A DNA stretch of 64,000 nt from contig JAUCBJ010004969.1 in NCBI GenBank assembly GCA_032718475.1, positions 1-64,000 of the forward strand, written 5' to 3'. The DNA is from Nemertoderma westbladi (taxonomy: Eukaryota; Animalia; Xenacoelomorpha). The notes below the pieces were generated by a model, which was not told the DNA's origin, did no database searches, and saw only the letters and a list, made by a program, of their open reading frames with translations. Numbering within the stretch: position 1 is the stretch's first letter; each line of letters starts with the position of its first letter. Below, in pieces: positions 4,245 to 59,319 of this stretch. A program made the position numbers and the translations under genes.

Positions 4245-4831
4245 TGTAATATTGCCTATTTATATTTGTACACATAAAACCCCTAGGTACTCTCGTGGCG
4301 TAGTGGTCAGATGGTTAAGGCGTTGGTTACATTACAGATAGGTTACGAGTTCGAATCCCGGTCGGGAAATTTGTATTTTGGGGCCATTTATTTTCATTTG
4401 GTGCAAATTGGCGGACCAATGAGACGCGTACAACGTATCGAACGATGAGCCAGGCCAATCATGGGGCATAAAATATCTTATTGCTCAAATGTGAGGCTAT
4501 GGAAAATTCTGTTAGGATTCCGTGTCCCAGATTAGTGTAAGGGCCAGTTTGCATTGAACGATGGGCTGGGCCAATCATAGGGCATAGGGCACTTTATTGC
4601 TCAAATGTGAAGCTGTGGAAAATTCTGTTTGGTTTCCATGTCCGATATTTAGTATAAAAGGCTGGTTTGCCTTCGGTTATCATCTCTCTCACACTCCACT
4701 TGACTTGCGTTATTATTCACCTTGTTAACTTGTCAGATTAGTTATTTAGTTTATTTTGGTTTCTTGTTGAAACTCTGTTTGATAATCTTTGCTCGAATCT
4801 AAACTGTAAATATACTGCAAACTCCTGAACA
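4245..4831 (+). promoter_or_regulatory. Putative 5' LTR of the BEL element
   Basis: TGT...ACA ends, a ~117-bp tandem duplication with CCAAT boxes (4440-4670), TATAAAA at ~4653 and a pyrimidine-rich R-like stretch. TGGTCC follows at ~4842 but is only a partial PBS-like match. No 3' LTR to confirm boundaries. Confidence 0.45.
4296..4367 (+). other. tRNA-derived (pseudo-tRNA / SINE head-like) segment with Pol III A and B boxes
   Basis: TGGTCAGATGGTTAAGGCG (A box/D arm) and GAGTTCGAATCCCG (B box/T arm) at tRNA-like spacing. Acceptor and anticodon stems do not pair, so it is not a functional tRNA. Confidence 0.65.
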
Positions 4832-5948
4832 TGTTTTCTTTTGGTCCAACCTTGGGACAGACAAACATCGAGAGGATGGCAGCCTAAACAGTTAGGCCGT
4901 CAGCAACGCAGGGGAAAGATGTCCACAACACGCTAGCGCCCACTTTAGATTTGACCGCACACCCCCTTTGCCCTTCGAAATACTCCGACTTCCCATGCAG
5001 CGCCCGCTTTATGAGGAAGGTAAGACTTTGTTCGACGCCCTTGCCCAACATAAGACCTATAGATCAGGGTAAGCGTGATGCCGTCCTAGGACGCCGCAAA
5101 ATTTAGGATCAAATAACTATATTCTAGGCAACCCCCCCCCCCTTGTCAGTACTGCAAATCCCTGGGTTACCTGTATACCTCACAGGTGCAAGCTATTGCC
5201 GTTCGTCAGTACGCAAGTACACATTAGGTACGGACAGCATACGTTCCATAATTTAGTGATTTGTTAGTACTGACTGTTTGGTACCGGTTCGCTTTGTAGA
5301 GCATACATTAGTACCCCCCCCCCCCCCCCCCCCCCTCTGCCTGAAGTTAGTTATTTGATCAGGCAAGGAGTATTTCTGCTACCGGCACACCGCTTGGCCT
5401 AGGGAGGTTTTATTAATATCCTACTGCACCTTGCCACGTACTGATAGGTATCTGCTGCTAACTACCGCGGCAACAAAATTCTAGAATCAAATTTGTATAC
5501 CAGATCAGCTAACGTACGGTAGCGATTAACCCCTATTTCTTATCTTACAACCAGAATCTGGTATTAGTGCCGATCACGGGTCTAGTTACTAACACCGTGG
5601 TTGCCCAGTTGAGTTGTGGATAGGAAGGAGAGAGCTTTGACGTCATTTGTGAGTATAAAGTTCTACAAACGCGACTAGTTTATTTTAGTAGCTAGTGCAC
5701 GGTATCATTTCAGTCAGAAAATCACTAAAACCTAGTGAAAAGATATACACCAAAATTGTTTTTATTGTAACACACCCACACACACACGCCCTAAAACATA
5801 TTTACCCTTAGAGTTCTACTAGTTATAGCGCACTTCGGATTACGTTAGGCAGAATTTATCTGTATTTGTAGAATTAGGATCTGATATTTAGTTACGGCAA
5901 AAGGAGTATTTCATCATTTTCGTTATTAAACTGTTGTTTGCCTAGAGC

Positions 5949-6077
5949 ATCAGTATTGTTACGTTAGGCACGACCCTTTTTAGACTGATTTCGTACAGGG
6001 GGATCAGTTATTGTTACATTAGGCACGACATCTTTTAGGCTGATTCAGACAGGGAGATCAGTATTGTTACGCTAGGG
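5949..6077 (+). repeat. ~54-bp tandem repeat (about 2.4 copies) in the BEL leader
   Basis: ATCAGTATTGTTACGTTAGGCACGAC... repeated. Confidence 0.8.
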
Positions 6078-7269
6078 CTGTAACCCACCTAGCTCGTATA
6101 TAAACCATATAAATCACACCGCGGCAAGTTACGGTATTTAGGACTGTCAGCGATAGTTAGGATTCGCTGCGCGGGGATTGTTTTCCCGTGAGTTTGGTCT
6201 GTTACTGTAACTGTACATCTGCCATACCGGTTAGAGGACAGGTTTCCTTTTGTCTAGTTCGTAGGCATTAGACCCGCTCACGTACATAGAATAGACACCA
6301 GGCTCTGCTCCTCGCCAGTAGTAGTTTGTGTACTGTATCTGTTCGTTTAGATATCCTGGACTGGGATTTGTTGTCAGATACTGTACAAGCCCGTTTCATT
6401 ACTAGAGTCTCATAGTAAGATACATCGTTACTAGGATCTGGTAAGCGGTATACTACTGGACTTTACGGTTAGAGATATTCTATAGCTTCATATTAGTAGA
6501 CTTGTAGGCCGTAGGATAGCCCCTACCGTAGAGGATACAACAGTGAGGTATATTTATTATTAAATTTGCAAGTTGCGATTTGCAAATTATAAATATATTG
6601 TTAGCTATTGTAAGTAGGAGATATTTAAAATTTAAGGTTAGTAAATTAGTAATTTGTAGAACGTCCCCTGCTTCAGTAGGCTTTAGGGTAGCTAGTAGTT
6701 TCGTATTTAATATTTGACTAGCTAATAGTTAGTTTGTAGCAATTTGTTTTACGCCGTGTGTGTGCGGTGTTACTTTCGGTACTTGAAAAGGTACATAGGG
6801 TTTAAAGACCAAGTTGTATCGGTACCTAGGAAGATTTTTCGTAGAGTAGAAGTAAAACTCTCACCTTCGACTTTTCAGGACTCAAGGACTCATTTCTGGA
6901 CCGCTTCGAGGATTAGACCGCTTTTCGCAAAGTTTGGGAGACAATAAATTCGTCCGCGCCGCCGAAAAACGGAACGACCCACGTCCGGTTTGTATTTGCG
7001 AATTTGCACGACTGGAAGATCAAAGGAGCGTAAGTTTTACGACTCGTGTCGTTCAAACTTAGAAAGCACAGTAGTACTCAAAATTTGTGGGTTTCACTGT
7101 CTAATTTAGTAGTGTTGTTGGTACTTATTTTCCCGTTAGACGTTGCTGTTTTGCCTATTATTTGTACTTGTTGATCTACCTTTTGGTAACGTATACCGTT
7201 ATCTCACGTATTCGTACAAATTTAGCCGGTAGGCTAGATTATTACTTATTTTATTATATACTTTGTTAG

Positions 7270-7462
7270 TTTTATTTGTACCGGTTAGGGTATATATATG
7301 ATATATATATATCAAGGTAAGTTTGACATTTGGACATTTCGACATTTTGACATTTCGACATTCTGACTTTGTTTTTTTATTTGTACCGGTTAGGGTATAT
7401 GTGTTATATATATACCAAGGTAAGTTTGACATTTCAACATTCAGACACTTTGACATTTTATT
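7270..7462 (+). repeat. ~106-bp tandem duplication with GACATTT sub-repeats just upstream of gag
   Basis: TTTATTTGTACCGGTTAGGGTATAT...CAAGGTAAGTTTGACATTT present twice. Confidence 0.85.
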
Positions 7463-7489
7463 ACCCGTACTTGACGTATATAATAAGAC

Positions 7490-10400
7490 ATGAGTGACAC
7501 ACCCCATTCGACGAGATACCCACCTACCGACTATGACTCATGTGACCCGGACAGATCGACAGTAGACGAACCGAGAAGGAGAACCCGAGATTCCACCGAT
7601 GTCATACTGCGTGCGTCGCCGGTACCCCGTACGGAAATACCGGAAGCCGCAACGCATGGCGACGGTAGGATCGAAGATTTCCTTACCGTCCCGCAGACTA
7701 GATCGCGGGAACCGGACATGGTAAGTTCGACTGGAAGCCAGGAGAACGTCATTAGAAGCATAGGAGGACACATGGCCCAGATTACTCGGAACCTCGGAGA
7801 AGGTTTTCGCACTTTACGCGAGTTATCCGCCCCGATGTCAAGATACGAGTTCTATACCTTACAGGTAAGGATAGAAAGTAGGGTACATGCCTCCGTAGAT
7901 AAACTTAAAGGTTTACACGAACTTGCCGAGTTGCGTGGCGACAACTTTACTCAGGTAAAGATAATAGATAAGTTAGTAAGTGCGAGAGAAAGTATTATCC
8001 AGTTTAAGTCAGTAATAAGATTGGCTCAACAGGAGCAGTTCGACCAACTGCTAGGTGAGTCAGTTTCGGACGCGTTGTTACAACCCGAAGAGGAGGAAGA
8101 ACTTTATTGCCTGGACGGAAGGTTGGAGACGCTCACCAATTTTCTTCGTAGATGCGGCATACCGGTCGAAGAACCGGAAGTCGAACCGCGAGGGACGACG
8201 GAAGTTCTCACTACGGAAGGCTCGCGAGCCTATCAGCATCCACCACTGGATAGATTGTTCGTTAGCATGTGGAGCGATGTTGGCGACGTTAGTAGGACAG
8301 CGTCTGTAATTACTCGACAACAACAGGAAGTTGCACGCCAACAACAAGTTGCCGAGGAAGAAGCGCAACTACAGATGGCACAGATCGCCACCGAGGGAGA
8401 GAAACAACGCAGAGAAGACGAGGCGAGAATTGCGCAACTCAAAGCGCAAGCCGAATTTGAAGCATCGGAAATGTGTAGATTGGAGGAGGACCTAGCGCGA
8501 GAAGCGGCAGCAGCAGCCGACGAGTTAGCACGGAAGAAAGCAGCATCCGACGCTCGTGCTCAGTTGGAGGCACGGCAAATAAAATCGCGATTAGCCATTC
8601 AGGAAGCGGAGTTAGCGGCACAACAACAAGTAGCAGATCGACGCGAAAGAGAGATGCAACTACAGTTCGAATTTAATCGTAGATCGCGCGAGGCAGCGAA
8701 CGCGCAAGCGGACCTCGAACTCGACGCGAGAGATAGATCTATAAGATCGCGAGCTGGACACGATTTGTCTGCCCTGGATCGCTTGGAAGCTCGATATCGC
8801 GGGATACAGAAGCGAATTGAGGAAGGGAGTGTGGGAGCGATGGATCGAAAGGATGAGTTCGTCGAGGATTATTGTAAACGTTTTCCACAAGTTATTCCTA
8901 TGCTCAAACCCACGACTCCGATAAATCCGATCTTTGTTACGAAACCGAAGGAAATAACACCTGTGCGCTCGACGCAAGGTGACAGGTTTGTTGTGACGGA
9001 AATACCGCAACCTAGGGCAACTTCATCGCCGATTTTAGCAGGTAACATAACTATTCCACCTACAGTAAGTCGTAGTCTACTTGTAGGAAGAGAGGAACCT
9101 GCGTTTGTAACAATTAAACAGGTAAGTAAACCGTCAGCAGTTCAACCTGCAACGTGCTGTGCGAACTCAGTTGTTTACAGATTGACTACGAAACCCGATT
9201 ACTTTACTCGACCATTGACACAATGTTCGACGCGACCTACGACTTCGTGGAAGGCTTGCGAGCCTACCGAACAACGGAGGAGGACGGATGTGGGTAGTAC
9301 CCACAGGATCGAACAATGTTTAACGAGACCTACGACTTCGTGGAAGGCTTGCGAGCCTACCGAACGACGGAGAACCGTAGATTCTGGACCGCAACGCATT
9401 CGACAACGAGTAATACGCCATACGCGAACCCGCCAACCACCTTACACGGACGACAGCGATTCATCCAGTGACTCGGAGTCGACGGAACGGGAAATATTCC
9501 GTACTGGAGCGGCGGCTGATTACAAACAGGAGGAGAGATCAACAAATCCATACATCAACAATCCTCCACGAGAAACACCTTTGCAGAAACCCACGTTGCA
9601 ACCGACTGAGACGATTACCACCAACAGACTCGCCGAAATAATGCGACCTGTGGCGGACCGACTAGCTCAACTCGAAGAGCGACTCGAAGCGCAACCGTCG
9701 GATCGATCACGAACAAGCGTGGAGTTAGAACAACCTAGACAACATCGACCACCGAGGAGAGAACAGGAGACTAGACGGACTCCGACCCATCGAGAAGAAG
9801 ATCCCGTTAATAATTCCTACCGACGAACAACGCGCGGAAGGGAATGACTGGACGACGCCATCGAACAGGGATGCGGACAGTTGGACTTAGTTAGCGAGAT
9901 TGCGAAATTCGCGGCTAGACACGGATTACCGGCACAGCAACCGCCGAAGTTCTCTGGCAACGCGAAACACTGGCGCACACTGGTAGACTACGTAGAGTCC
10001 CAGATCGCTAAGTGTGCTTTCACCTCGACGGAGAAGTTTAATTACTTGCTCCTAGTCCTGTCTGGTGAGCCGAAACAATTAGCGGAAACCTTCATTGGTG
10101 TTCCAGATGCCTTTGAGTTGGCGTACGACCGTTTGTATTCGATTTACAGTGGTAACGTGGCCATGGCTAAATCCATCATCGAAGACCTCTGCAGAGGAGG
10201 CAGCATTTCGAACCCGATCGACCTTCTACGACTCGCGGACGAAATCAAAAACGCTATAGGGACTTTACGGTCCATCGGACAACTCGAATACGCTAACGCA
10301 CCGACGGTTCTCATCAGGATAATCGTTCGACTTCATCATCGACTCCGACGAGAATGGCGACGCATCGAGTATCAGCATGAAGAAACCGGCGGGCTATTAA

Positions 10401-11437
10401 AACTCACCGACGTCTACCAACTGATTTCCCGGGAGGCCGTTATCGAGACTCGATCGAACTATACCAATCACCATATCGCGGCAGAAGGGATAGCTATTTC
10501 TGCGCTGACTCGGACTAAACCATTTCCGACGAATGCGAAAGCCGTTACCTACGCCACCCCTACTGAGACTTCTAAAGTTCTGACGCCTATCGGCACCACG
10601 CAGCCACGACAACAGTTGCCGGCGGACTTTGTGGGAATCTCGTACTGCGAGCGGAACGGCAGAAACGATAGCGGACATAAACTTTGTGGATGTTGCGCTT
10701 TTAAGGAGTTAGGAATCGAAGAGAGGAGACTCCAGATTCAATCGTTAGATTCCTGCTGGAGATATATGAAGCCAGGACACGTCCGGAAGGATTGCCCGAG
10801 CGACGATACATGTCCTCAGTGTGGACGTAACCATGACGCGTTGCTCCACACAACCAGTCATACTCCGACCAAACGCTTTCGACGAGAGCATCCAGATAAA
10901 GCGGCTAGATGCGACGCGCTTTACAAGGAGCGTGCGCCGCGCGAGATCCATACGTTTTTTACGGACTGTATGGATCAGTCAGGATCATCGGACGAGGACG
11001 AGGAGGAGGGCGACACTTTCTACGTGCATGCGGGTGAGGAACAGCCATCGATAACGCTCCTCACACAGAACCAATTGAAAGGGTTTAGCGTGATTCCTAT
11101 AAAGATTACCGGAAGCCGAGGGAGCAAGCATATATACGCCATCTTAGACTCTGCGTCATCACATAGCTATGTCGACAAACAAGTAGCCGATGTGGTTACG
11201 GACATGAGTCAAGGTAAGACTGCTCAGTATACTGTAAGCAGCATGCATGGTAAGAGAGCGATCCCTGTGACGAGAGTAAAACTAACTTTAGACACTCTTC
11301 TTTCCAAAGCGGAACACAGCAAGGAGGAGCACTCATTACTTCCAGTAAGAAATTTGACCTTTGCAACTACGAAGGACTGTAGTAACTTGCTCGGCCCTGT
11401 GCCAGAGCAATCACCAGAAGATCGTAAGTATTTCTGA
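7490..11437 (+). CDS. gag: BEL/Pao Gag plus aspartic protease (in-frame TGA at 9845-9847)
   Basis: Long N-terminal E/Q/A/R coiled coil, then PPKFSGNAKHW...EKFNYLLLVLSGEPK (DUF1759-like), BEL Cys-His array (CWRYMKPGHVRKDC...CPQCGRNHDALLH) and protease motif YAILDSASSHSYV. Confidence 0.9.
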
Positions 11438-14400
11438 CACCTTGGAATACCGGAATGTCCTGTTAATTATCGCTCAATCGCGATGTTGATTGGGACAGAC
11501 CAGTTTAACTTACATCAGGTATGGGAGACACGCCCATCTGTTATTACAGCAGGCAACCCCTACGCATGTAGAACTCCCATAGGTTGGTATACTAGAGCTC
11601 CAATACATTCACTAGAGGTAAGTGACCAGGAGGACGACGTTTTGAGTACGTGTAGTTTATTGACTAACACGATAGATAATTCTCCTTCACACTCCTGTGG
11701 TCTTATTGTACAGACGGCAATATGACAGACTTGCGTCACTAACGCAGACGCCATCGATACTGACGTAACTGATCTGGACACGACCACACGGACCTCTGAC
11801 CTACAACTACTTGCAGCAAACCAGGTTGTATTGACTACTGGAGACCAAAGGGTTGTTGCCGTGGATGACTCGATGAACGAGGATTTTGGAAGGCTTGCGA
11901 GCCTACCAAAAATTACTAAGGTCATTGACCCCACCCACCAGGCTTTGACACTGGTCGTTGATCTTGGAAGGCTTGCGAGCCTACCGACAGATCAAGAGGT
12001 TGTCAAACCGCCACAAAACGATTCGACGCCGACTAGTGACACCGGAAGGCTTGCGAGCCTACCAGACACATTGACACTAGCCACCGCAGCGGACGAAGAC
12101 GTGGACGAGGACCATGGCGCAGTGCAAGCAGCGCTTGACCGACTGCTGACTGAACGGACCATTCAATGGTTGGAACAGGACTCAGCAGAACCCGGTAGTT
12201 ACGAGACCGCTATGTCAGAACAGGAAAAACGGTCATTAAATATTATGAGAGATACCATTCGCCAGACCGCAAATGGCCACTACGAGGTTGGTATGTTGTG
12301 GCGCAATGGACAACCTAAGCTCGTTAACAATTACCCACTTGCTTTGAGGCGACTCAAATCAATAAGGCAGCGATTGTATCGAGACGAGACGGCCCATATG
12401 CAATACAATGCACAACTTCAGACGTATCTCCAAAAGGGATACGCCATTAGGATGTTAAATCCCGAGGTGACCACAGATCAGACATATTACCTGCCACATC
12501 ATTTTGTTCGACACCCGGACAAACCTGGCAAGGTGCGTGTAGTCAACGACTGCGCCGCACTTTACCAAGGGATGTCTATGAACAGCGAACTGATGGACGG
12601 GCCAAATATGAATAATTACCTCATGGGAGTCCTAATGCGTTTTAGACAACGCAAAGTGGCTTTCACCTGTGACGTAGATGCCATGTTTCACCAGGTTAAG
12701 GCTTTGGAGCGGGACAGGGACAGCTTGAGGTTTCTTTGGTATCCGGACGGAAATTTAGAACTTCCGCCAGAAACTTACCAAATGCAGGTAAGAGTTTTCG
12801 GAGCCAGGGACAGCCCCAACTGCACCATGTACGCCTTAAAGCAGACAGCATTGGACAGACGAGACCAGTTTGACCCAGAAGTAGTTCGGACCGTGGAACG
12901 AGATTTCTACGTGGATGACAGCCTCAAGAGTTGTGACACCTTGGAGCGTGCTACAACCGTAGCACACCAACTCCAGGATTGTCTCGCTGAGGGCGGATTT
13001 CACCTGACGAAATTCGCTTCCAACGAACCTGAACTGGTGAACTCATTTGACCCGACAGATCGTAGTGGAGGGGACTTGGACTTAGACCTAGAACGTCTAC
13101 CGACGACCAAAGTATTAGGACTTAGTTGGGACCCTAACACCGACAATTTTAGGGTACGTGTAAGGTCCAACGACCCGACTAGACCTCTCACTAAGAGGAC
13201 TTGCTTATCGACCATGAGTCGATTGTATGACCCATTGTGTTTCATTAGTCCAGTGATCCTACATGCTAGGATCATACTCCGCAGCATTTGGCAAGCCGGA
13301 TTGGAATGGGACGACCCCATCCCAGAAAAGTTAGCTGAGCAATGGAGGGACTGGGAAGCCCAACTGACTTTCCTACAAGACTATACCATACCAAGGGTAT
13401 ACTTTCCTTTGCAGACCACCTTTCCTGCCGATTTAGAGTTTCACAGCTTTAGTGACGCTAGCAAGGATGGATTGGGGGTTACATTATACCTTAGACGACA
13501 AGTGACATCGGACAGCTACGATGTGTCTCTCGTTACTTCTAGGGCTAGAACAATGCCATTGAAGTATATGACTGTACCTCGTGGAGAGCTACAAGCCGGG
13601 ACGATATCCACAGATATTGTCAGTCTAGTTCAACGCGAGCTGGAGGCTAACTTGAAGGTCACATATTGGACGGATGCGACATTGGTACTTTGGTACATAA
13701 ACAACAAAGCGTTTGAGTTCAAGACTTTCGTAGCCAACAGACGGGCTGAAATCTTAGACCGGTCGCTCACACAAGATTGGCGTCACTGTCCAGGGAAGCT
13801 GAACCCAGCTGACATCGCGTCACGGGGGATGCAACCACTTCACTTTTGTAAACCGTACAATAAATCCTTTTGGTTTAGAGGACCCGATTTCCTACAGCGA
13901 CCATCAGACGAATGGCCACCGTTATTCGACGCGACAACCAATACCGTACCAGAGGGTGCCGAGATAAAAATCGACAAGGTTGTCAAATCTAAAGCAAAAG
14001 CCAACGCCAAGGTCAAGGGGAAACAAGGACGGACGGGATCTGATGACCTGGACGCTAGACCTGACATTACGCCAGACGTCTCACCAGAATCTCGACCAGA
14101 CGCTTGTACGAATCTTTCACTGGATGTTCCGCGGGAGATTTCACCAGACGTTTCGCCAGATTGTTCAACAGATTACTCGCCAGATTATTCACCAGAAGCG
14201 ACACCAGATTGTTCTCCGGATTGTTCGCCAGATTGTTTTATGGAACTCTCGACAGATTGTCTACCGGACGTCTCACCAGACTTTCCACCAGACATCTCAA
14301 CAGACTGTCCACCAGACTTTAGACCAAACTTTCTGACAGAAGTTACGCTTGACACCTTTTGGGACCAACGACAGGACATTTCGCCGGATGTTCCGCGCTA

Positions 14401-16269
14401 TGTCTCACCAGACGTCTCACCAGACTGTTCATGGGACGCTTCACCAGACTGTCTATTAGACACTCCACTAGAAGACCCATTGGAGCGGACCATTAGAGAC
14501 TTACCGAATTTGACTTCTTTGGACGACAGAGGTGTGGCCACAGCGATCACACTCCGCTCAAAGAAAGTACTTGACTTACCACCTACAGGTAAAGGTGTGA
14601 CTAAGGTTAGGAAGCTTACAGGCTCACAGGAACACACTGGTACTGTAGAGTTGAAACCGTTACTGCCAGTCGACTCACTAGGAGCGGACGGTAAAGGTAA
14701 GACCGTGGAGATTGACATACTTGGGGACTCAGGCAAACCTACCGGAAGGCCCGTGGGCCTACCAAGTCCAGACAAGTATCCACACTACGACTATACCTTA
14801 CCTGATGACGTCACTAACACTTATGTTGACCGGATATTAAACCTAACTAGATCATGGACTGACGCATGGCTCAAACGTTTGAGACAATATGCCAGAGGCA
14901 AACGCGACTTTCCTAGAAGACTTACCTTAAAGGAAGTTGTTCATTGTGAAGTTGATATCATTCGCCATTATCAATTGCGATATTTCGCACGAGAATTCAC
15001 AGCGATCAACCAAGGTAAACAGATCAAGTCTTCACCGATTTTGAGTTGGAGTCCGATTATTTATCGGGGCTTACTTTGTCACAAGTCCAGACTCCAAAAC
15101 ATCGACTTTGCACTTGACTTTAGGTATCCTATCATCATACCGCAACACCATGAATTACAGCGCGCAATGATACTGGACGCACATGTACAACTCAAACACG
15201 TGGTTAGACACCACTGTCTATCACACTTACGATCAAGGTTTGTACTGATTAGGCCTAGCAAGGCATTGAGTTCCGTAACACGGAACTGTATGATTTGTAA
15301 GAAGGTGCACGCGAGGATAGGACACCAGGAAATGAGTGAACTACCACTAGCTAGATTACAGGCGTTTAGACCCCCTTTCACTGAGACGGGGATAGACTGT
15401 TTTGGACCCATAATCGCGAAACGCGGAAGGGTACAGGTAAAACGTTGGGGATTGATCTTCACTTGCATGGCCAGCAGAGCTGTCCATATTGAGCGTGTGA
15501 CAGATTTAACCACCAATGCCTTTATCCTAGCCTTACGGCGATTTATCGCTAGACGTGGATTGGTCAAATCCATTTACTGTGACCAAGGGACAAACTTTGT
15601 GGGCGCACGGAACGAAATAACCAGCGCTTTGAGGAAGTTGGACCAAAACCAGATTTCCGAGGAACTACGTCCTCACCGTATTGTTTGGAATTTTAATAAA
15701 CAATAAAAACAGCTATAGCTAAAGTAATACCGACGCAACACATCTTGACAGACGACCAACTGACGACGTTACTAATAGAAATCAAAGCGATTTTGAACAC
15801 TAGACCAATCGCTTTGATCCCAGACAATAACGACGTACAGTTTGCCTTGACACCAGCACACCTGCTTATGCAGGAGCCAACGACATTGTTGCCCATTTCG
15901 GTACCCGTTAATAGCGACGGATACGGCAACAAGGTTTGGAAAATCACTCAACTGCTTGCTAATAAATTCTGGGAAATATGGCAGAAATATTATTTGCCCT
16001 CTATTTCGACCAGAACCTCTTGGTATCTAAATACACGATGTTTGAGACGTGGTGACCACGTTTTATTGGCTGAAGCCAATCTGAAAAGACGGTTTTGGCT
16101 GACTGGAGTCATTTTGACCACACACCCTACATCTGGTGTAGTAAGGACCGTTACTGTAAGGACTATCGACGGGCATACCGTAGATAGGCCTGTACAACGT
16201 CTCGTACTCCTAGAGGAGACTAGAAACGAGACAGGAGACTACAAATCTCCACCCAATATTAGTAAATAG
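11438..16269 (+). CDS. pol: BEL/Pao Pol (protease end, RT, RNase H, integrase), disrupted by TGA at 11723-11725 and a frameshifting deletion at ~15700
   Basis: YYLPHH, DVDAMFHQV, FGARDSP, FYVDD (RT); FSDASKDG, WTDAT, NPADIASRG (RNase H); H-H-C-C zinc finger, GIDCFGP, YCDQGTNFVGA (integrase); DUF5641-like C-terminus. Confidence 0.95.
14057..14470 (+). repeat. In-frame 12-bp minisatellite encoding (x-S/P-P-D)n inside pol
   Basis: PDITPDVSPE...SPDVSPDCSTDYSPDYSPE...SPDCSPDC. A shorter version is present in the second copy at ~50230-50395. Confidence 0.85.
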
Positions 16270-16993
16270 ATGTGGGACCTTTGATGGCTGCCACATAGCT
16301 TTACCGTATTTTAGTAATTTAGTATTTTGTATTACTGTATGTGCATTTGTAATCCTCTTCACTGTAGATAGAGACAGCGGTGGAATTCCATTGTCTTTAT
16401 ATGTGAACATGGAGGGTAGTACCCTTATGTATCACATAGGAGCGGGATTGTGTGTACAGTAGGAATGGAATTCCACTTGGAACCCACAAGTGAGACAATT
16501 TTTCAAAAATTATTAAACAAATCCATTTAGTTGGATTTAAATTTAAGAAAAATTATTCTCCAGTGAATGCGAATTCTAGAATACAGCTAGATAAAAATTA
16601 AAAATTGGGGAGGACAAGAGTGGATGGAAGGCTTGCGAGCCTACCGATAAATTTTTTTTTGGAAAAAGAAAATTGGCCTTGTTCTACGTAGTCGTGTCTA
16701 CTATTATTTAGACCGAATTAATTCTCGACTGCACTATTTTCTTTTGGGAATGTAGCTTGGGAAATTAAAAGGTGAGTATTTTAGACTCACGGCTAGTTTA
16801 CCCGGAATTCGTTTTTTATCGGCACAATTTTGGATTAGGAGCCAGTGCGAAATCACGCAAACCCGAAGTCATTAGGCAAATGGGTTGGGGTTTAGAGCAA
16901 AGTTGAGCCAAAAGCCGACAAATCACATCTAACCTCTATTTTGTGCTTCATCTAGTAGAAACGTAACGATATGTAACCATATATTCGTACACG

Positions 16994-19900
16994 ATGGCAG
17001 AGAAGATGTACAAGGAGTTATGTCAAGGGTTTACGCAGGAACAAGAGCACCAGGCACCATTTAATCGTTATGGAGCTAAAAACTTTAACGTGTTTGGAGT
17101 GGAGAGTATGGCTAGGAGTACAGCCAAGTTCGCTAAATCCAAGGCGGACCCGAATGTTACGCGACAGCAGTTGGACGCATATAACAAAAGAGTGGAGGAA
17201 TTACTCGCGGAGTTCAATGCGTTATATCCTTACGATGCGTTATGTGACGCTAGCGACATTTGCGAGGATCCAGACACGGAGATACGCCGATTGTATCATA
17301 CGCTGCAATATTTGACGGCGAACGAACCCTTACCTGCAGCCAGAGACGATTTCGAAGGAATGCATCTTTATAGATGCGCTCGAGGAGCTGATCCAGAGAC
17401 AAAGGACACGTTCTCCATATACAAACTGTTTTATAAACATGTATGCATGAGCAAGACAACGCGATTCCTATGCAGTTGAACTCGGAGAACCCCGAGCCGA
17501 TATTAGCGCGATGCTCATACCACCAAAGTCTACGTTACCAAGAAGGTGGATACCCTTTGACGAATCCGTACCATTCGTTTAAAATGAGTGGACCAAACGC
17601 GGGTGAGATCATTATTTACAAACCCAAATTAGTCGAACCAGATGTCTACAGCATGGTAGTGGACGAGTCTAATAAGTCGACACAAGAGAAACGGGAAGCT
17701 TTGAGCCTCTTCAGGGCGTACAAGGCGTACGAGAAAGGCGAGATCGAGGAGTTCGGCGAAAGGCTCGCGAGCCTACCATTCTATTGGATATCCCACGATC
17801 AAACCGAACCCAAGGAGATGACACCCAAACTCTTCGATAGTATCACCTTTGCTCAGCATTTGTCGCAGAGACTACAGATACCTCATGTCGAGATGACGCG
17901 AGAACCTCAGCCCCATTCTGCTGGAGCGATAGTACCAGTTGCGAGACCAACTAGTTTTCCTATTAGTATACCGACCCGGAAGGAGACAACTTATGAGATT
18001 CCTATAGTTGAACACCCGGAGATCATTTCGAACCTGGATTTCCTCCCATCGGTTACCTTTGGCGATGTGTTGGAGTCAGCCGAGTTGCGTAAAATAATAG
18101 TTCAAAAAATCGTACGCAACGTGCCTCCACATATTACGGACTTTAAGGAAGTGGATCGCGCGGGGACGGATATCGCACCTTGTATCTTGCGAGGATATCT
18201 AACGAAAACGATTCGATTATGGATCGGAGTTGGAACGATTGAGACCGACACAGATATCGCGACCAATTGGACCGGTAAACCTATTAGTTTCGATGATGAA
18301 AAGTCGATTGGGAGAATTTGGAACCCTACCGACGATTTACTCGACGATTGGGACGTGACTAGCCGATCTCTAAAGGAGAATGGTTATATGTTTTACGATA
18401 ATGAAGGAGGAAGCCATCAGCAAAGCCTCACTTCGAAGACTATACAGATTAGAGCACCAGATGGCGTGTTACATGTCTTCAGCCGACAGAGGAGTGATAG
18501 AAAGATGCCTATGCCGGAAGGAACGACGCAAAGACACGCGATGATAAAACGGATAGTTAAATCCATGGACCTGGCTTGTAGCATAGAAGCTAGGATGTTG
18601 CCAAAGGCCGTGCGAGATATTGTGTTGGATAAGAGCATCGTCAAGATCGGATCCGGTGTACGGGATGACCTTATTAGCGATTTTGCGGGAATGCCCACGG
18701 AAGAGGATCGATTGCCTACGCCATATGTGGATACTAGACCATTGTTGCTCTGGGCTATTGAGCAAGGATATTTTAGGGAGTATAACACGCTAAAAACTGG
18801 GACGGGTTATATCTCATATCTAATGTTCAGTTGGGATTACAAGGAGAGTAAGAGAAGCAAATACATGGACGTATACGGAGAGGGAGATACCCCCGGCGTA
18901 AACGAGTTCGAGTCACAGTTGAAGTGGCAAGGTTGCGTGTATTGGGCGATTACTTCACCTCCGCGAATAATCTTGCAATACTATTTAGCGATAGAATCTT
19001 CGGTTAACATTTGTTTCATCGCGGATGTAGTATCCAGAACCCTAAAGCGACACCCGTTATGTCTCGGCGAAGGACATACCTTTTACGACGGAGGAAGGAT
19101 GCATACTGATGTATTCCGACGATTTCTCCAACCCTTTTATAACACCGATGCGCACTGCGAAGTTTTCACGCGAGCGGGACTTAGCGTTTTCAGGGACGTC
19201 TATCTCACTCACGCGGGAAGTCTAGTCAACAGACCGTCGATGTTAACGTTAGTACCCTGTGACGGGGAACGCCACGCGGAATTCAAAGACCCGGAAGGAT
19301 CCTGGAAGGCTCGCGAGCCTACCGCCTATCATGACGATGTGGACCCGACCGAGTTTGCGATGATAGACGAACCGTTGCGGCAACTCATAGAGATAGAGGA
19401 GAACCTTCCGAGGAAGACGCGAACTGAGATACGCGAGTTGGAGAAAAGCGATTCTATGGTTTGTGTACAACCTACGGAGACGAACATACCGACTGACCCG
19501 GATGATGAGAATTATCACGTGGATGGTAGCGCTCGCCCCATCGGAGATCTCATCTATGAGCGAGTTTGGTACCCTGCCAACACTATTTGTGGGAGATGCG
19601 GGGCAACTGTCCATCACGCAAAGAAATGCGGAGCAAAGCACATATCTCTCTACCGGACTTAGTATGCAACTGGTGCGGGGATCAACGTTCGCACACTTTC
19701 TACACTTGCTGGCGTTTCGTGGTGCAGTGCACGTATTGTAATATTAAGGGCCATAGGGCATCGGAATGTCAACTTAGAGACGTCCCCTATGAGCACATGT
19801 CAGTTAAAATCGTCCGACAGTTATTCGACCATTGGGAGGATCTAGCAGACGAGCATGTATCGACGCAGCGACGCCGTTTCCCTATGAGAGCACATTTGGG

Positions 19901-20132
19901 ATTTTGGGCTGCCGTAAACCCTCTCATAATGTCAAAGGAAGGATATGTATCGGCTATGCCTCAGTATGATGAATTGTTGGAGGTGCTGGATATATTGCCA
20001 TTGGACAGTGGATTCAAAGTTGTGCGGGACTATTTCTTACAGGTGCACCCCGACAACAAGAATACTTGGAACTTTCAAACTATGATGAACAAGATTACCG
20101 CCGGAGAATTCGATAAACTGCGAGTTGAATAG
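16994..20132 (+). CDS. BEL ORF3 (~1040 aa, two frameshifts): DEDDy 3'-5' exonuclease (WRN/EXD/Mut-7-like) plus three CCHC-like zinc knuckles
   Basis: Overlapping ORFs 16994-17479, 17443-19662 and 19566-20132. ExoI FYDNEG, TIQIR, LPKAVRDIVLDKSIVKIGSGVRDD (ExoII), YVDT, W...QYYLAIES (ExoIII-like). Knuckles CGRCGATVHHAKKC, CNWCGDQRSHTFYTC, CTYCNIKGHRASEC. Confidence 0.75.
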
Positions 20133-20175
20133 CGAAATCGAGGAGCCTGGCATTCGATAGGGTCACACCAAAGGG

Positions 20176-22092
20176 TTGCGGGAGTTTATCGGTATGGTAA
20201 CGTTTTACCACCGATTTATACCCGCAGCTGCTGCCGCACTGCAGCCACTTTACGCCGCCGTCGCCACCAAGGCTAGGGACATCGACTGGACTCACGAACT
20301 AGCCGCATCCTTCGAGTCCTCCAAGCGGGCCCTCGCAAACGCCGCCATGCTCGTCCACCCTCGCCACGATGCGCCGACCTCCGTCACCACCGACGCATCA
20401 GACTCAGCTGTCGGCGCGGCACTAGAACAGTGGACCGATGGAAAGTGGCGACCGCTCGCGTTCTTCAGCCGACAACTTCGCCCTCCCGAACGGAAGTACA
20501 GCGCCTACGACCGCGAACTCCTCGGCTTATACCTCGCGGTCCGCCACTTCCGTTATTTTCTCGAAGGCCGAACGTTTGTGGCCTACACGGACCATAAACC
20601 CCTAACTCAGGCCTTCTCAAAGGTCACTGACCCCTGGTCCCCCCGTCAACAGCGCCACCTGGCGTACATCTCGGAATTCACCACGAATGTACGCCACGTA
20701 GACGGAAAGGACAACCAGGTCGCGGACGCCCTCTCTCGCAGCTTCGTGGGCCACCTGTCGACCCAACTCGGGGTCGACTATAAGGCCATGTCGGCCGCCC
20801 AACGGGAGGATGACGAACTACAGGCCTTCCAGGCAAACCCTGGTAGCCTTGATCTACGTGACGTCACACTCGCGGACGATGACGTCACGCTCCTCTGTGA
20901 CGTCTCTACGGGCCGACCTCGGCCGATAGTCCCCAGCACGTGGCGCCGCCACATGTTCGATGTGGTCCATTCGCTGTCCCACCCATCAATCCGCTCCACT
21001 AGGAAACTCCTCTCCGAGCGTTTCGTCTGGCACGGCCTGTCCAAACAAGTGACGAGCTGGGCCAAGGCTTGCGTCGCCTGCCAGACCTCTAAGGTTCAAC
21101 GCCATATAAAGGCCCCCCTCGAGACATTCTCTGTTCCTCGACGCCGGTTCGACCATGTCAACGTCGACCTGGTAGGGCCCCTCCCTCCATCCAGAGGCTC
21201 CACCTACCTGTTTACGATCGTCGGCCGGACTACTCGTTGGCCCGAGGCCATCCCGCTCGCCGACTCCACAACCGAGAGCTGCGCCCGCGCTCTCGTCGCC
21301 CACTGGATCGCCCGGTTCGGCGTACCGGTCGAACTATCCTCCGACTGCGGCAGTCAGTTCACCTCGGAGTTGTGGGCCGACGTCAACAGACTCTTCGGCA
21401 CCAAACTCCACCGGACGACGGCCTACCATCCGCAGGCAAACGGCCTGGTGGAACGGTTCCACCGTTCCCTCAAGGCCTCCCTTAGAGCCCGACTAACTGG
21501 ACCAAACTGGGTCGACGAACTGCCATGGGCCCTTCTGGGCTATCGGACCGCCCCCAAAGAGGACCTCCACTGCTCGTCGGCCGAGCTGGTCTACGGCGAG
21601 CCACTGACGGTGCCTGGCGACTTCGTTGCCTCGCCAACCGACCCTCCGAACTCGACAGCTTTCCTCCCGGGCCTCCACTACCACGCACGGCAGTTCATGC
21701 CCACACCAACCTCCCGTCATGGCCAACCCAACTCGTCAGTGCCGTCACAACTAACAACCAGTGACGATGTCTTTTTACGCACTGATGCTCACCGCGCTCC
21801 CTTACAGCGGCCCTACACCGGGCCGTACAAGGTCGTACAGCGCGGCTCAAAGACGTTCGTCATCGAGGTGGGCGGGCGTCAGGAGACCGTCTCCATCGAC
21901 AGACTCAAACCGGCCCACCTCGCTATCGATGAACCCGTCATTGTGGCCATCCCACTGCGCCGTGGTCGACCACCTACAGTGACACCCCCGGACCTCCCTC
22001 CCCCCAGTCCCTGCAATTCACCCGAACCACCGCAAACTACCATAGCAACTCGAAGTGGGCGGGCCATCCGGCAGCCGGACTATTTTTATTAA
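20176..22092 (+). CDS. pol: Gypsy Pol fragment (RT thumb, RNase H, integrase)
   Basis: TTDASDSAVGAALEQ, YSAYDRELL, YTDHKPL, NQVADALSR, HHCC finger, VNVDLVGPLP, AYHPQANGLVERFHR, GPY motif. Confidence 0.95.
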   Translation: MREFIGMVTFYHRFIPAAAAALQPLYAAVATKARDIDWTHELAASFESSKRALANAAMLVHPRHDAPTSVTTDASDSAVGAALEQWTDGKWRPLAFFSRQLRPPERKYSAYDRELLGLYLAVRHFRYFLEGRTFVAYTDHKPLTQAFSKVTDPWSPRQQRHLAYISEFTTNVRHVDGKDNQVADALSRSFVGHLSTQLGVDYKAMSAAQREDDELQAFQANPGSLDLRDVTLADDDVTLLCDVSTGRPRPIVPSTWRRHMFDVVHSLSHPSIRSTRKLLSERFVWHGLSKQVTSWAKACVACQTSKVQRHIKAPLETFSVPRRRFDHVNVDLVGPLPPSRGSTYLFTIVGRTTRWPEAIPLADSTTESCARALVAHWIARFGVPVELSSDCGSQFTSELWADVNRLFGTKLHRTTAYHPQANGLVERFHRSLKASLRARLTGPNWVDELPWALLGYRTAPKEDLHCSSAELVYGEPLTVPGDFVASPTDPPNSTAFLPGLHYHARQFMPTPTSRHGQPNSSVPSQLTTSDDVFLRTDAHRAPLQRPYTGPYKVVQRGSKTFVIEVGGRQETVSIDRLKPAHLAIDEPVIVAIPLRRGRPPTVTPPDLPPPSPCNSPEPPQTTIATRSGRAIRQPDYFY

Positions 22093-22113
22093 TTCAGGTT
22101 CTGGGGGGAGCCA

Positions 22114-22343
22114 TGTAGTGGCCATATATATATATTAGGGGTCATCGAACCTGAATTGAACTAATACTGTTGTACCTTACTGCAGTATGCACCCATCACT
22201 GCACTGTATCAACTTTCGGTTTCATGGAAACTATTGTTACAGTCAGACAGTGGCTGTACCCGTAGTCATTACTAATACTGGTTTTACTTACTGCTGTACT
22301 GACTCATGTAAATATTAAACGTTGAGAGACTACGCTCTCTACA
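22114..22343 (+). repeat. Gypsy 3' LTR (230 bp)
   Basis: Starts TGTAG right after the PPT, ends CTACA, contains ATTAAA poly(A)-like signal. Confidence 0.85.
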
Positions 22344-22580
22344 CAATATAATATTGTCAAATGCGACTGTCAAGATGTGATGCTATAATTAACGATTAAC
22401 GATACGAATTAATTAATGATTATTTTAAAATTAAAACATATTATAAAACACATTTCTTACTATACTGTAAGTACACGTTCGTGGGGACTTCGCGCAGCAC
22501 GAGGCCTAGTTATTATATACAAATTAAAATGCAGCGACTGTATCACAAAATCAGGTTTTGAGAAATTTACCCACACCACC

Positions 22581-23230
22581 AATCAATCAAAGAAAGGTGG
22601 ACAGTACGTGTTCACCCCTTTTAATCTCCCCCCCCCCCACCCTTCCCAACCACCAATACATAACCGCGACATCTACCACCCACGGAAGGGTAGCACGAAC
22701 TTATTTCCAATCGCACGTTAAATATGCAAAGCCAGGTGGTTTATAGGAATATAATAAACGCAGTACTCGTTTTCATTATAAGCCTCTTTGCGTTCGTCCT
22801 GTTTTGTATTTAAATATATTTCTTAAACGCAAGCTAGGACGATCTTTATAATAATAATAACTAGGGATGCGATCAATATGTGAAGCCAGGTGGTTTATAT
22901 AATAATTTAGTCAACGCAGTACTCGTCTTCATTATATGCCTCGTTGCGCTCGTCGCTTGTCCTGTTTTGTCATAAAATATTTTTCCTAAACGCAGACTGA
23001 CGATCTTTATACAGTTATAACTATGCGAAGTTTCGAAACTGTGCGAGTAACTGTTGATACATCTATGTGGAGATGTGTGATATGTGGAGATGTGTGATAC
23101 AACGCCAACGCATCTTATGCCGATGTAGTAATATGGGTATTGAAATAATATTAAATCAATGTACACTCTTAAAGCTGCAGCGAAAAAATGTAGCTAATTT
23201 CCTAGGTTACATATAAAATAATAATATTAT
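22581..23230 (+). repeat. Interspersed repeat with internal ~130-150-bp sub-repeats, copy 1 (copy 2 at 50553-51160)
   Basis: AATCAATCAAAGAAAGG...GTGTTCACCCC...CTTAAAGCTGCAGCGAAAAAATGTAG shared with 50553-51160 in the same orientation. Confidence 0.8.
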
Positions 23231-23952
23231 TTTTAAGAACATTAATTTTACTACTTTGCAAAAATTCAATTAAAAAATAACCAGACATATACATTGTGGA
23301 ATAAACTATTTCAGAAGCCTACAACAGCCATGCCATGGATTGTATTTATGTTATTATATCTGTCATTTAACTGAGATAGCAATAGTAGTAATAGTCGAAC
23401 GGTTATGCGGCCCGTCCAGCCTATAATAAACACAATTCAGTGATTGGGCTGGAATAGCAATACTGGTTGCCTCTATTACAATTCCTCTCAGGTTAGTCTA
23501 CAGCCACAACTCCCAGCAGCTAGCTCCACACCAGCAGAGACTTGACCAATAATGGGAAGGATTAAATTTGTACTCAATAATTGTGCGGTTTAATTACGTT
23601 TAGATCAATTAAAGACACATTTATTAAAGCAAATCACTTAAACTAATTAAAAACTATAATAGAATGGCGTATGGGGATTATATCTGTATAATTTTTAAGT
23701 ATAATTATTTAAATCTTATACTGTAAAACAATTAATTTCCTTTAAAAGGCAGGTTGAAAATGGCGTTTTCACCGCAATCAACTTAATTAACTAATTAACT
23801 GCTATTATCTGAGCTTCTCGAAGGCCACACGGAAATTCTACTTGGAAAATTTCTAAACTTTTGCCAAACAACATGTGTACCAAGTTTGGATAGATTTCAT
23901 CAAAGAATGGCCGAGTTATTAACGTTTAAAATTGAACACGACAGAACGACAG

Positions 23953-24875
23953 TTGCTAAGTTAGTTTAACCGCTGTTCTAACGTTTGTTCCTCAGTTAGT
24001 GTAACCGCTGTTCTAATGTTTGTTCCTCAGTTAGTTTAACCGCTGTCCTAACCTTTGTTCCTCAGTTAGTTTAACCGCTGTCCTAATCTTTGTTCCTCAG
24101 TTAGTTTATCCGGTGTTCTAGCGTTTGTTCCTAAGTTAGTCTAACCGCTGTTCTAACGTTTTGTTCCTCAGTTAGTTTAACAGCTATCCTAATATTTGTT
24201 CATCAGTTAATTAAACTGTTGTTCCTCTGTTATTTTGATTGGTGTCGTAAACTTTGTTCCTCAGTTATTTTAACCGCTGTCTTAACCTTTGTTCCTAATG
24301 GATGGCGTAACACTTGTTCCTCAGTTAGTTTACATGCTTCTAGTTCTAATCTTTGTTCCTCAGTTAGTTTAACTGCTTTCCTAATCTTTGTTCCTCAGTT
24401 AGTTTAACTGCTTTCCTAATCTTTGTTCCTCAGTTAGTTTAACTGCTTTCCTAATCTTTGTTCCTCAGTTAGTTTAACTGCTTTCCTAATCTTTGTTCCT
24501 CAGTTAGTTTAACTGCTTTCCTAATCTTTGTTCCTTTGTTACTTTAAGAGCTGTTCTAACTTTTGTTCCTTAGTTATTTTAACTGCGCTGTCCTAACCTT
24601 TGTTCATCAGTTTTAACAGCTGTAACCTTTGTTCCCCAGTTAGTTTTATCGGTGTTCTAACATTTTTTTTTTGAGTTAGTTTAATCGCTGTCGTAACCTT
24701 TGTTTCTCTTTTAGTTTAAGTGTTGTCCTAACCTTTGTTACCCACTTAGTTGAACCGTTGTCGTAACCTTTCTTCCTCAGTTAGTTTAATCGGTGTTCTA
24801 ACCTTTTATTTCTGAGTAAATTTAATCGCAGTTGTATCCTTTGGTCCACATTTAGTTTAACTTTTGCTTAGTTTA
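23953..24875 (+). repeat. 35-bp satellite array (TTTGTTCCTCAGTTAGTTTAACCGCTGTTCTAACG)n
   Basis: About 26 head-to-tail diverged units with no unique spacers. Confidence 0.95.
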
Positions 24876-26443: not shown

Positions 26444-26647
26444 GTAAGTTCAGTTAATTGTTGTACATTTCAATTTTAACTACATTATTAAAATATAAAT
26501 TATTTTTATATTTATTTAATAACCATACTAATTACTATATAATTATAACTATATAATATTTAATATAAATTTTTATTAAATTTTTCAATGGATATTTTAT
26601 ATTTGAAGTTAAATTGAAGAAATATTAACATAATCCATAATCCTAAG

Positions 26648-27534
26648 CTTTGTTCATCAGTTAGTTTAAACGCTGTTCTAATATTTGTTCCTCAGTTAGT
26701 TTAACTGCTGTTCAAACGTTTGTTCCTACTGTTAGTGTAACGTTTGTTCCTCAGTTAGTTTATCCGCTGTTCTAACGTTTGATCCTCTGTTAGTGTAACC
26801 GTTGTTCTAACGTTTCTTCCTCAGTTAGTGTAAACGCTGTTCTAACGTTTGTTCCTCAGTTAGTTTAACCGCTGTTCAAACGTTTGTTCCTCAGTTAATG
26901 TAACCGTTGTTCTAACGTTTTACTCGGTTATTTTAACCGCTGTTTTAATGTTTGTTTCTCAGTTAGTTTAAGCGCTGTTGAAACGTTTGTTCCTCAGTTA
27001 GTGTAACCGCTGTTCTAACGTTTCTTCCTCAGTTAGTGTAAACGCTGTTCTAACGTTTGTTCCTCAGTTAGTTTAACCGCTGTTCAAACGTTTGTTCCTC
27101 AGTTAGTGTAACCGTTGTTCTAACGTTTTTCTAGGTTATTTTAACCGCTGTTTTAATGTTTGTTCCTCAGTTAGTGTAACCGCTGTTCTAACGTTTGTTC
27201 CGCAGTTAGTCTAACCGTTGTTCTAACGTTTGTTCCTCAGTTAGTTTAACAGCTGTCCTAATCTTTGTTCCTCAGTTAGTTTAACCGCTGTTCAAACTTT
27301 TGTTTCTCAGTTAGTGTAACCGTTGTTCTAACGTTTGTTCCTCAGTTAGTGTAACCGCTGTTGTAACGTTTGTTGCTAAGTTAGTTTAACCGCTGTTCTA
27401 ACGTTTGTTCCTCAGTTAGTGTAACCGCTGTTCTAACATTTGTTCCTCAGTTAGTTTAACCACTGTCCTAACCTTTGTTCCTCAGTAAGTTTAACCGCTG
27501 TCCTAATCTTTGTTCCTCAGTTAATTTATCCTCA
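26648..27534 (+). repeat. Second array of the same 35-bp satellite
   Basis: About 25 units, same consensus and orientation as 23953-24875. Confidence 0.95.
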
Positions 27535-59318: not shown

Positions 59319-59319
59319 A

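Follow-up and report, generated by a model that had tools for sequence, protein, structure and literature searches.

The closest described systems are the DIS of HIV-1, DIS-1/DIS-2 (SL-A/SL-B) of MoMuLV and the SL1a/SL3a kissing hairpins of Ty1, which share with the locus presented here a pseudopalindrome that can adopt hairpin or extended-duplex forms, carried by an element whose Gag has zinc knuckles (PMC7599994; PMC5454406). The known signals number one to a few and lie in the 5′ part of the RNA. DIS pseudopalindromes convert from hairpin to extended duplex, and HIV-1 NC is described in section 4.1 of PMC7599994 as binding guanines 2 and 4 of tetraloops. Bel/Pao replication is poorly understood according to the ICTV profile (PMC8742986), which gives a descriptive genome range of 4.2-10 kb. 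No dimerisation or packaging signal of Bel/Pao elements was found in the literature searched, in which a description of the family given in a supplement or repeat library could have escaped notice. The DNA analysed here (the window) consists of 64,000 nucleotides from Nemertoderma westbladi. It contains a Bel/Pao element with ten copies of a short palindrome in gag, pol, intergenic DNA and ORF3, whereas the leader has none (Table 1). It is proposed, with a roughly even chance of being right, that at its ten places in the genomic RNA this family-specific palindrome of 20-22 nt serves as a dispersed signal for dimerisation and packaging.

Table 1. Features of the element, palindrome copies and neighbouring fragments (window coordinates)
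Feature	Position	Strand	Remarks
Probable 5′ LTR region	4920..6560	+	Ends inferred, not fixed; no motif copy
gag-pol	7487..16269	+	Bel/Pao: DUF1759, Peptidase_A17, Integrase_H2C2, DUF5641
Copy 1	8215..8234	+	gag N-terminal region, phase 2 (EGSRAY); centre CGCG; position 19 = T (G·U if paired)
Copy 2	9249..9268	+	gag linker, phase 1 (WKACEPT)
Copy 3	9342..9361	+	gag linker, phase 1 (WKACEPT)
Copies 4-6	11888, 11966, 12044 (11888..12063)	+	Protease-RT linker, phase 0 (GRLASLP in each), 78-nt period
Copy 7	14744..14763	+	RNase H-integrase linker (GRPVGLP, pol frame); compensatory U-A to C-G change, centre CGTG
Copy 8	16626..16645	+	Non-coding; lies between pol and ORF3 and precedes nine consecutive T
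ORF3	16967..20132	+	Three frame pieces: 16967-17479, 17437-19662, 19560-20132
Copy 9	17758..17777	+	ORF3 N-terminal part, phase 0 (ERLASLP)
Copy 10	19304..19323	+	ORF3, phase 1 (WKAREPT), between DEDD-like region and knuckles
Gypsy-type RNase H-integrase fragment	20161..22350	+	Unrelated, own LTR-like end, at the element's expected 3′ end; no motif copy
Sister-subfamily pol fragment	48453-50552	-	80-83% identical, decayed
Copy 7 orthologue	49859-49878	-	In sister-subfamily pol fragment; 18/20 letters in common, inner stem and centre intact

The motif is carried by a Bel/Pao LTR retrotransposon that is decayed and at least 15 kb long. Pao-type domains follow the Belpaoviridae order Gag-PR-RT-RH-IN, with Pfam matches to DUF1759 (5e-10), Peptidase_A17 (1e-39) and DUF5641 (4e-19). 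The best 120 of 617 Bel/Pao relatives all carry PF05380 and are 36-45% identical. Two knuckle-like motifs were recognized in Gag by pattern search. In this copy gag-pol is broken by stops at 9845, 11435 and 11723 and by a frame change near 15700. Measured between the LTR-like region and the stop of ORF3, the element extends over ~15 kb, which is above the described Bel/Pao range. The LTR-like region exists on the 5′ side only, and the 3′ LTR is missing, with the Gypsy fragment in its place. Positions 6059-6333 are 77% like an isolated fragment at 46565-46287, and a simple scan found no PBS. The assignment of ORF3 to the element, argued in the first-pass annotation, is supported by the two motif copies within ORF3 and by the contigs of runs X1 and X3, which span every bin from 4800 to ~20060.

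The nine 20-nt copies that had been reported (all but copy 7) are all present on the + strand, seven of them exact and two with one mismatch, for a chance expectation of 0.02 ± 0.20 (100 shuffles). Translation frame by frame reproduced the three reading registers and their peptides; the non-coding nature of copy 8 and the single orientation of all copies in the element likewise stood. Copy 7, which differs by three changes, had been overlooked. Nine of the ten copies are thus coding. The motif is stop-free in its three sense frames, and one antisense frame has a stop. The copies are not independent and amount to about seven clusters. Copies 2 and 3 sit in a 60-nt duplication that is 93% identical. 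The mismatch of copy 9, at 17759, is private to this genomic copy among the 40 of 1,806 differences listed for the X-run contigs. A covariance-model scan with filters off detected no further copy in the 64-kb window; once the 11 sites used for training and their echoes on the reverse strand are set aside, the best score is 8.6 bits (E 5.2). No copy lies between 4920 and 8214, which includes the LTR-like region and 5′ leader. The ~45 kb of DNA elsewhere in the window, where a further Bel/Pao piece, a LINE piece and pieces of Gypsy are found, has none either. The earlier claim that no copy exists outside this element is to be read as none outside this family: the sister-subfamily pol fragment carries an orthologue of copy 7, and nothing outside the family was detected in the window.

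The eleven sites, orthologue included, all have a Y-G-Y-G centre, with guanine at loop positions 2 and 4 and a pyrimidine at positions 1 and 3. In all of them, the residue 5′ of the 20-mer is a pyrimidine and the residue 3′ of it is a purine. Folding prediction agrees with the initial view of a hairpin-forming sequence. Each copy is predicted to fold on itself as a 7-bp hairpin that contains an A·A mismatch and has Y-G-Y-G as its loop. Together with any other copy it is predicted to be able to refold as a duplex of ~16-18 bp. A duplex pairs centre position 1 with 4 and 2 with 3, so that exactly the Y-G-Y-G tetramers can pair mutually by using G·U; accordingly, the centres are both self- and cross-complementary. 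Predicted energies are -28.6 to -37.9 kcal/mol for the duplexes versus -9.1 to -11.1 kcal/mol per hairpin. When a folding window contains two or three copies, a copy-to-copy duplex is predicted instead of separate hairpins. Both the MFE and centroid structures show this pairing at 11870-12080 (z -5.0) and 9225-9385 (z -4.7), the low z-scores being due in part to the mere presence of repeated palindromes. Dimerisation is therefore favoured among the roles suggested by the first-pass annotation, which had also included packaging, recognition by knuckles and a dimeric DNA-binding site. With ±40 nt of context, the hairpin of copy 1 is predicted to be absent (P 0.0), and that of copy 9 to form only about half the time. 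The antisense strand is predicted to fold about equally well. C-to-T is the usual decay at CpG, and the TGCG and CGTG centres represent only two events; the strand bias is therefore possibly due to chance (about 1 in 4).

That selection acts on the nucleotide sequence itself, as had been deduced from conservation across frames, is supported by the 78-nt array and by variation among genomic copies. The two duplicate units of the array share 20/20 motif letters, identical at synonymous positions too, versus 26/58 spacer letters. Spacers 1 and 2 are homologous, old duplicates, and none of 500 shuffles reached their score. In the other genomic copies, sampled over 11840-12110 (the three motifs of copies 4-6) from contigs of runs X1, X3 and X5, 13 of 271 positions are variable at a share of at least 4%, and none of these 13 falls in the 60 motif positions (P = 0.035). 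Run X5 is RNA only as a guess, and X4 gave no contig in this region. The flanks 12021-12110 and 11842-11887 are invariant as well among the X-run contigs, which makes the contrast between motif and flank patchy, and one X3 contig has a motif centre that lacks its first G. Overall, the motif looks constrained as nucleotides. Covariation, which had been put forward as a check, did not rise above the shuffle control (467/500 shuffles attain the score). There is one compensatory event only, the U-A to C-G stem change of copy 7 at 14744, which is kept in the sister fragment and is thus common to two subfamilies; a G-C to G·U change occurs in 2/11 copies.

As judged from alignments, the motif is placed in dispensable linkers: all seven gag-pol copies lie in stretches that are missing from, or unaligned to, the 120 relatives. 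In the proposed dimerisation and packaging role, the Gag zinc knuckles would bind to the loop guanines and act as chaperones in the switch from hairpin to duplex, as retroviral NC does at DIS/PAL. At many points of an unusually long genome, pairing between copies would either link the two RNAs that are packaged or make a single RNA more compact. The copies may have arisen through template switching and local duplication, and may have persisted only at sites where a stop-free insert of seven residues is acceptable to the protein. The self-complementarity and the double capacity for hairpin and extended duplex that characterize DIS/PAL-type signals are found here by prediction, but the location in the 5′ leader is not. 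The loops also fit the N-G-N-G tetraloop pattern, with guanines at 2 and 4 in all eleven sites and knuckles encoded in cis. The NC-bound SL2 and SL3 tetraloops of HIV-1 (GGUG and GGAG) have guanines at the same positions, whereas positions 1 and 3 are pyrimidines here and knuckle binding is putative. If the motif is a dimer or packaging signal, a retroelement can spread such a signal along its coding region rather than confine it to the leader, possibly to cope with a genome half again longer than the described Bel/Pao range. The motif is short, sharply bounded and repeated, and offers a direct experimental handle that can be made as a 22-nt RNA.

It is less probable, and on balance unlikely, that the hairpin is instead recognized in the RNA by the element's ORF3 protein, whose knuckles would dock a DEDD-like domain to trim, protect or export the RNA, the motif being a mark of self. 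After an N-terminal part that is an orphan, ORF3 has DEDD-like motifs (D-x-E, KxGxGVxxD, YxxxE) and, by pattern search, three CCHC-type knuckles. The DEDD-like motifs occur in order, as FYDNE at residue 319, KIGSGVRDD at 403 and YLAIE at 516. They were recognized with the ExoI/II/III acidic patterns of DEDDy enzymes, the last acid being E and not D in ORF3. In the Atlas language model a WRN-like exonuclease cluster, 38% of whose members carry PF01612, scores 0.91 for ORF3 by features (155/256). Against this, HMMER found no match of ORF3 to exonucleases in Pfam, the PDB or a home-made profile of 30 bacterial PolA/RNase D exonuclease domains, and the single-sequence fold has a pLDDT of 34 and is unusable. 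From motif order and this one language-model match, ORF3 is a candidate DEDD-type exonuclease, as a lead only. Sequence searches found no relatives of ORF3, and ORF3 and the motif are both absent from the relatives of the element that were found, a point in favour of this reading. Constant pyrimidines at loop positions 1 and 3 are not explained by ORF3 binding. Precedents exist in the DEDDy ORF3s of rotifer LTR elements (PMC5408684) and in the Cer1 export factor CERV (PMC10309623). The bdelloid LTR elements Vesta and Juno have an extra ORF with DEDD-like motifs after pol, although they belong to other lineages and the ORF3 of the present element is far longer and has knuckles; the terms 'hairpin' and 'palindrom' are absent from the main text of PMC5408684. 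If ORF3 reads the motif, the DEDD-type ORF3s of LTR elements, so far unexplained, would have a first substrate.

On another reading, which is quite improbable, the motif is a double-stranded DNA site bound by a dimeric protein, either host-derived or VANC-like and encoded by the element, that protects the integrated copy from silencing. In its favour, the motif forms an inverted repeat whose centre is rich in CpG. The CpG o/e ratio is 1.13 in the element versus 0.73-0.91 in flanking DNA and 0.5 in the LINE piece, but the adjoining Gypsy piece reaches 1.1 without any motif. Arabidopsis VANDAL elements also associate an accessory protein, VANC, with a family-specific motif multiplied within the element, and some copies arose by tandem duplication here as in VANC targets (PMC5735166). 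However, VANC motifs are non-palindromic DNA sites of 8-9 nt in non-coding tandem arrays of a DNA transposon. Such arrays are not seen here, where nearly all copies are coding, none is in the LTR region and all ten have the same orientation. The symmetric double change at 14744 also alters both half-sites yet preserves pairing.

It is again quite doubtful that the motif is functionless for the element. It would then be a micro-repeat, selfish or recombinogenic, that template switching at the hairpin has copied and homogenised and that linkers tolerate, as with the palindromes of bacterial coding sequences. The absence of stops in all sense frames and the confinement to linkers missing from relatives would suit such a repeat, in-frame repeats fused to genes exist in bacteria (PMC3184786), and conversion between copies could mimic conservation. 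Conversely, the copies have no common target-site duplication and do not occur in the ~45 kb of other window DNA, and the 14744 variant stayed distinct in two subfamilies, which counts against homogenisation. Reverse transcription moreover tends to delete direct repeats, the figures taken from PMC3187697 being for repeats of at least 110 bp. More doubtful still is a two-part system of RNA self-recognition, with a hairpin barcode present ten times in any frame of the coding sequence and a knuckled exonuclease, encoded by the element, that reads it to protect or process the element's RNA against host silencing or rival elements; if true, this would be the RNA-level equivalent of VANC in an animal.

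Several known repeats and structures were rejected. A CRISPR-like repeat-spacer array does not suit spacers 1 and 2, which are homologous and in frame. A histone stem-loop was discarded as no Rfam covariance model matched the motif; the two Rfam matches in 5000-23000 are chance matches that lie on no motif copy, and a tRNA scan gave nothing on the motif. Motif-derived peptides in any of six frames occur in none of the 120 Bel/Pao relatives (the best of 617, at most 45% identical), and viral contigs contain no exact motif and no related loci. Rickettsia palindromic elements and GTAG-type REPs are also palindromes inside or between genes, and the antisense strand starts GGTAG here. However, Rickettsia palindromic elements are 105-146 nt long and genome-wide, whereas the motif has 20-22 nt, occurs within the window in a single retrotransposon family and is not a prokaryotic repeat. 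A bacterial REP origin was rejected, since matches in the prokaryotic and viral collections are at chance level. In 596 Gb of prokaryotic genomes the exact motif occurs twice, with about 2 expected by chance. Four viral matches to the degenerate 14744-variant form are one identical sequence of 67% GC with no Bel/Pao protein match. Two metagenome contigs contain the exact motif as single matches, in bacterial-type DNA of 58-63% GC.

The window was searched for the 20-nt palindrome with up to three mismatches, in parallel with shuffled sequence. All nine copies of the first-pass annotation were recovered at their positions, together with a tenth at 14744, against a mean of 0.02 matches in the shuffled controls. 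The ten copies lie in phase 0 (five), phase 1 (three), phase 2 (one) or non-coding sequence (one), in agreement with the peptides that had been named for them, and the motif contains no stop codon in any of the three sense frames. The motif had also been described as absent outside the element. This does not hold for a diverged sister pol fragment, where a script scan allowing five mismatches found the orthologue of the 14744 copy, but it does for the rest of the 64 kb, where a covariance model trained on all 11 copies detected no further one. A five-mismatch match at 4078 is unrelated. The letters bordering the 20-mer are coupled in 9 of the 10 window copies (5' T with 3' G, or 5' C with 3' A); at the one exception, 11888, genomic copies elsewhere conform. 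As wobble pairs, U·G and C·A have similar shapes; the bordering letters could instead mark two lineages of copies.

Palindrome copies and other features of the window, with positions in nucleotides
Feature	Position	Observation
Palindrome copies 1-10 (starts)	8215, 9249, 9342, 11888, 11966, 12044, 14744, 16626, 17758, 19304
Sister Bel/Pao pol fragment	48453-50552
Orthologue of the 14744 copy	49859-49878 (-)	in the sister fragment
Tandem in LTR-like region	5949-6070	55-bp unit; length variable among other genomic copies
Duplication in leader	7260-7458	103 bp
Array in RNase H-integrase linker	14047-14485	degenerate 12-bp tandem (S/T-P-D-x peptide); shorter in sister fragment
Stretch with nine-T run	16646-16680	follows the only non-coding copy, which is itself predicted to lie in a larger stem
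ORF3	16967-20132	in frame pieces
Gypsy-type fragment	start ~20160	occupies the expected 3' end of the element
Satellite-like arrays	23870-24860, 26640-27600, 59240-60088	units of 35 bp and 27 bp
LINE-type reverse transcriptase fragment	30300-32345
Second Bel/Pao fragment	55236-57460	unrelated; LTR-like end; no motif copy

The host of the copies is a Bel/Pao LTR retrotransposon with the ordered domains DUF1759, Peptidase_A17, Integrase_H2C2 and DUF5641. It is 36-45% identical to the best 120 of 617 relatives, of which those named are mainly from marine invertebrates and fish. With ~15 kb between its LTR-like region (near 4.9 kb) and the stop of ORF3, the extra frame after pol, it is longer than the 4.2-10 kb of the ICTV profile (PMC8742986). 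The window element is decayed: gag-pol has three stops and changes frame once, and ORF3 changes frame twice. Parts of it are present in five of seven sequencing runs, four of these five from one organism. Contigs of runs X1 (19,556) and X3 (9,224) covered all bins, with a summed depth, which does not equal copy number, of 19,000-110,000 across 4800 to 20061 and of 600-1,100 across the greater part of the Gypsy piece. This coverage only suggests a repeated family to which ORF3 would belong: its continuity favours the earlier assignment of ORF3 to the element, but none of the listed contigs bridges pol to ORF3. In run X4 (window 15953-20061), contigs cover the LTR-like and ORF3 regions and leave parts of gag-pol gapped, which could reflect filter loss or derivatives retaining ORF3.

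All seven gag-pol copies lie in stretches aligned by at most 10 of the 120 relatives; such stretches hold 1,173 of 2,740 residues. Protease and RT are 334 residues apart (59 relatives: 149-286), RNase H and integrase 427 (51 relatives: 94-196). Motif-derived peptides occur in none of the best 120 of 617 relatives. Because few relatives align, the linkers are longer, the peptides are not shared and the frames are stop-free, the motif is family-specific and seated in dispensable linkers at domain borders. Such placement is required under all models and discriminates between none.

Copies 4-6 recur with a period of 78 nt. Their first two spacers, 26/58 identical without gaps, score above 500 of 500 shuffles and are therefore old duplicates, yet the motifs of the array are identical despite this divergence; the likeness of the third spacer to the others is not significant (p 0.06-0.10). 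Contig and window sequence disagree at 13 positions within 11840-12110, and the 60 motif positions are free of such differences (P = 0.035; 0.0035 when limited post hoc to 11888-12063). Most of the 13 oppose the window copy to the majority, and the flanks at both ends are invariant too, so that the contrast between motif and flank is patchy. X1 and X3 contigs match motifs 4 and 5 with the intervening stretch unaligned, as expected either of diverged relatives retaining the motifs or of contigs from another motif site. None of the contig depth in X1, X3 and X4 carries the mismatch at 17759, which is therefore private decay of the window copy. Spacers, contig variation and this decay bear out the proposed nucleotide-level selection: the motif is apparently constrained as nucleotides. 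Against constraint stand a changed centre in one X3 contig and two outer changes in the sister copy. An X5 contig (organism B), ~94% like 11465-12006, carries two unaltered copies; either a related species also has the family or DNA of organism A is present in the run.

A single copy is predicted to fold into a hairpin whose four-base loop is closed by five pairs, below which come an A·A mismatch found in every copy and two outer pairs. At 14744 a U-A is replaced by C-G, an outer pair is G·U in two copies, and 92% of pairing cells are paired across copies. The predicted folds and the U-A to C-G change agree with the hairpin suggested by the first-pass annotation; covariation among the copies was no better than in the shuffled control. 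The central tetramers of the 11 copies, the sister included, are TGCG (six), CGCG (three) and CGTG (two). In an annealed pair of copies, each of these tetramers can pair with itself or with the others by G-C and G·U. Predicted energies are -28.6 to -37.9 kcal/mol for the copy-copy duplex versus -9.1 to -11.1 for the hairpin, and in stretches holding two or three copies the predicted fold pairs copy with copy. RNA pairing has weak points: the central C-to-T changes are also ordinary CpG decay and number only two, and the antisense strand is predicted to fold equally well. The loop leaves G at positions 2 and 4, in common with HIV-1 SL2 and SL3, whose loop G at these positions are bound by the NC knuckles (PMC7599994).

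The favoured reading, with an even chance of being right, is that the motif is a dispersed palindrome for RNA dimerisation and packaging. Its hairpin is predicted to switch to a copy-to-copy duplex, knuckles may bind the loop, and the copies would bring about dimerisation, their dispersal possibly being tied to the long genome. The predicted behaviour is like that of DIS/PAL; unlike these, the motif is not in the leader, and it is therefore not classed as a member. Searches of prokaryotic and phage sequence collections and an Rfam scan ruled out a repeat of those sources or an Rfam family. The open-access literature searched listed no LTR retroelement whose coding regions repeat one near-identical palindrome. 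Most likely, the motif is a new arrangement of an established type of RNA signal in retroelements.

It is improbable that the motif is a binding mark for the ORF3 protein, which the absence of both from relatives would fit, but nothing connects the two. Searches of 5.8 billion and of 1.84 billion proteins found no relative of ORF3, and its main piece has no match in Pfam or PDB. It carries three knuckle motifs and, in order, D-x-E, KxGxGVxxD and YxxxE, which is the order in a DEDDy exonuclease. In the Atlas, a WRN-like exonuclease cluster scored 0.91, with only 155/256 features in common; a profile from 30 bacterial exonuclease domains did not match, and structure prediction gave no usable fold. 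ORF3 is thus a candidate, a lead only, for a DEDDy-like exonuclease, with a precedent for its DEDD-like motifs in the DEDDy ORF3s of rotifer LTR elements (PMC5408684). Slightly less probable is a VANC-like DNA site, which tandem growth of the copies would fit (PMC5735166) and which their coding location, single orientation and compensatory change do not. Neutral or selfish copying, equally doubtful, would account for the location in linkers, whereas the stable 14744 variant does not fit it. From its sequence, the motif is judged real, non-random and family-specific, on the basis of one element family.

The CpG observed/expected ratio is much lower in the LINE-type fragment (0.5) than in the Bel/Pao element (1.13).
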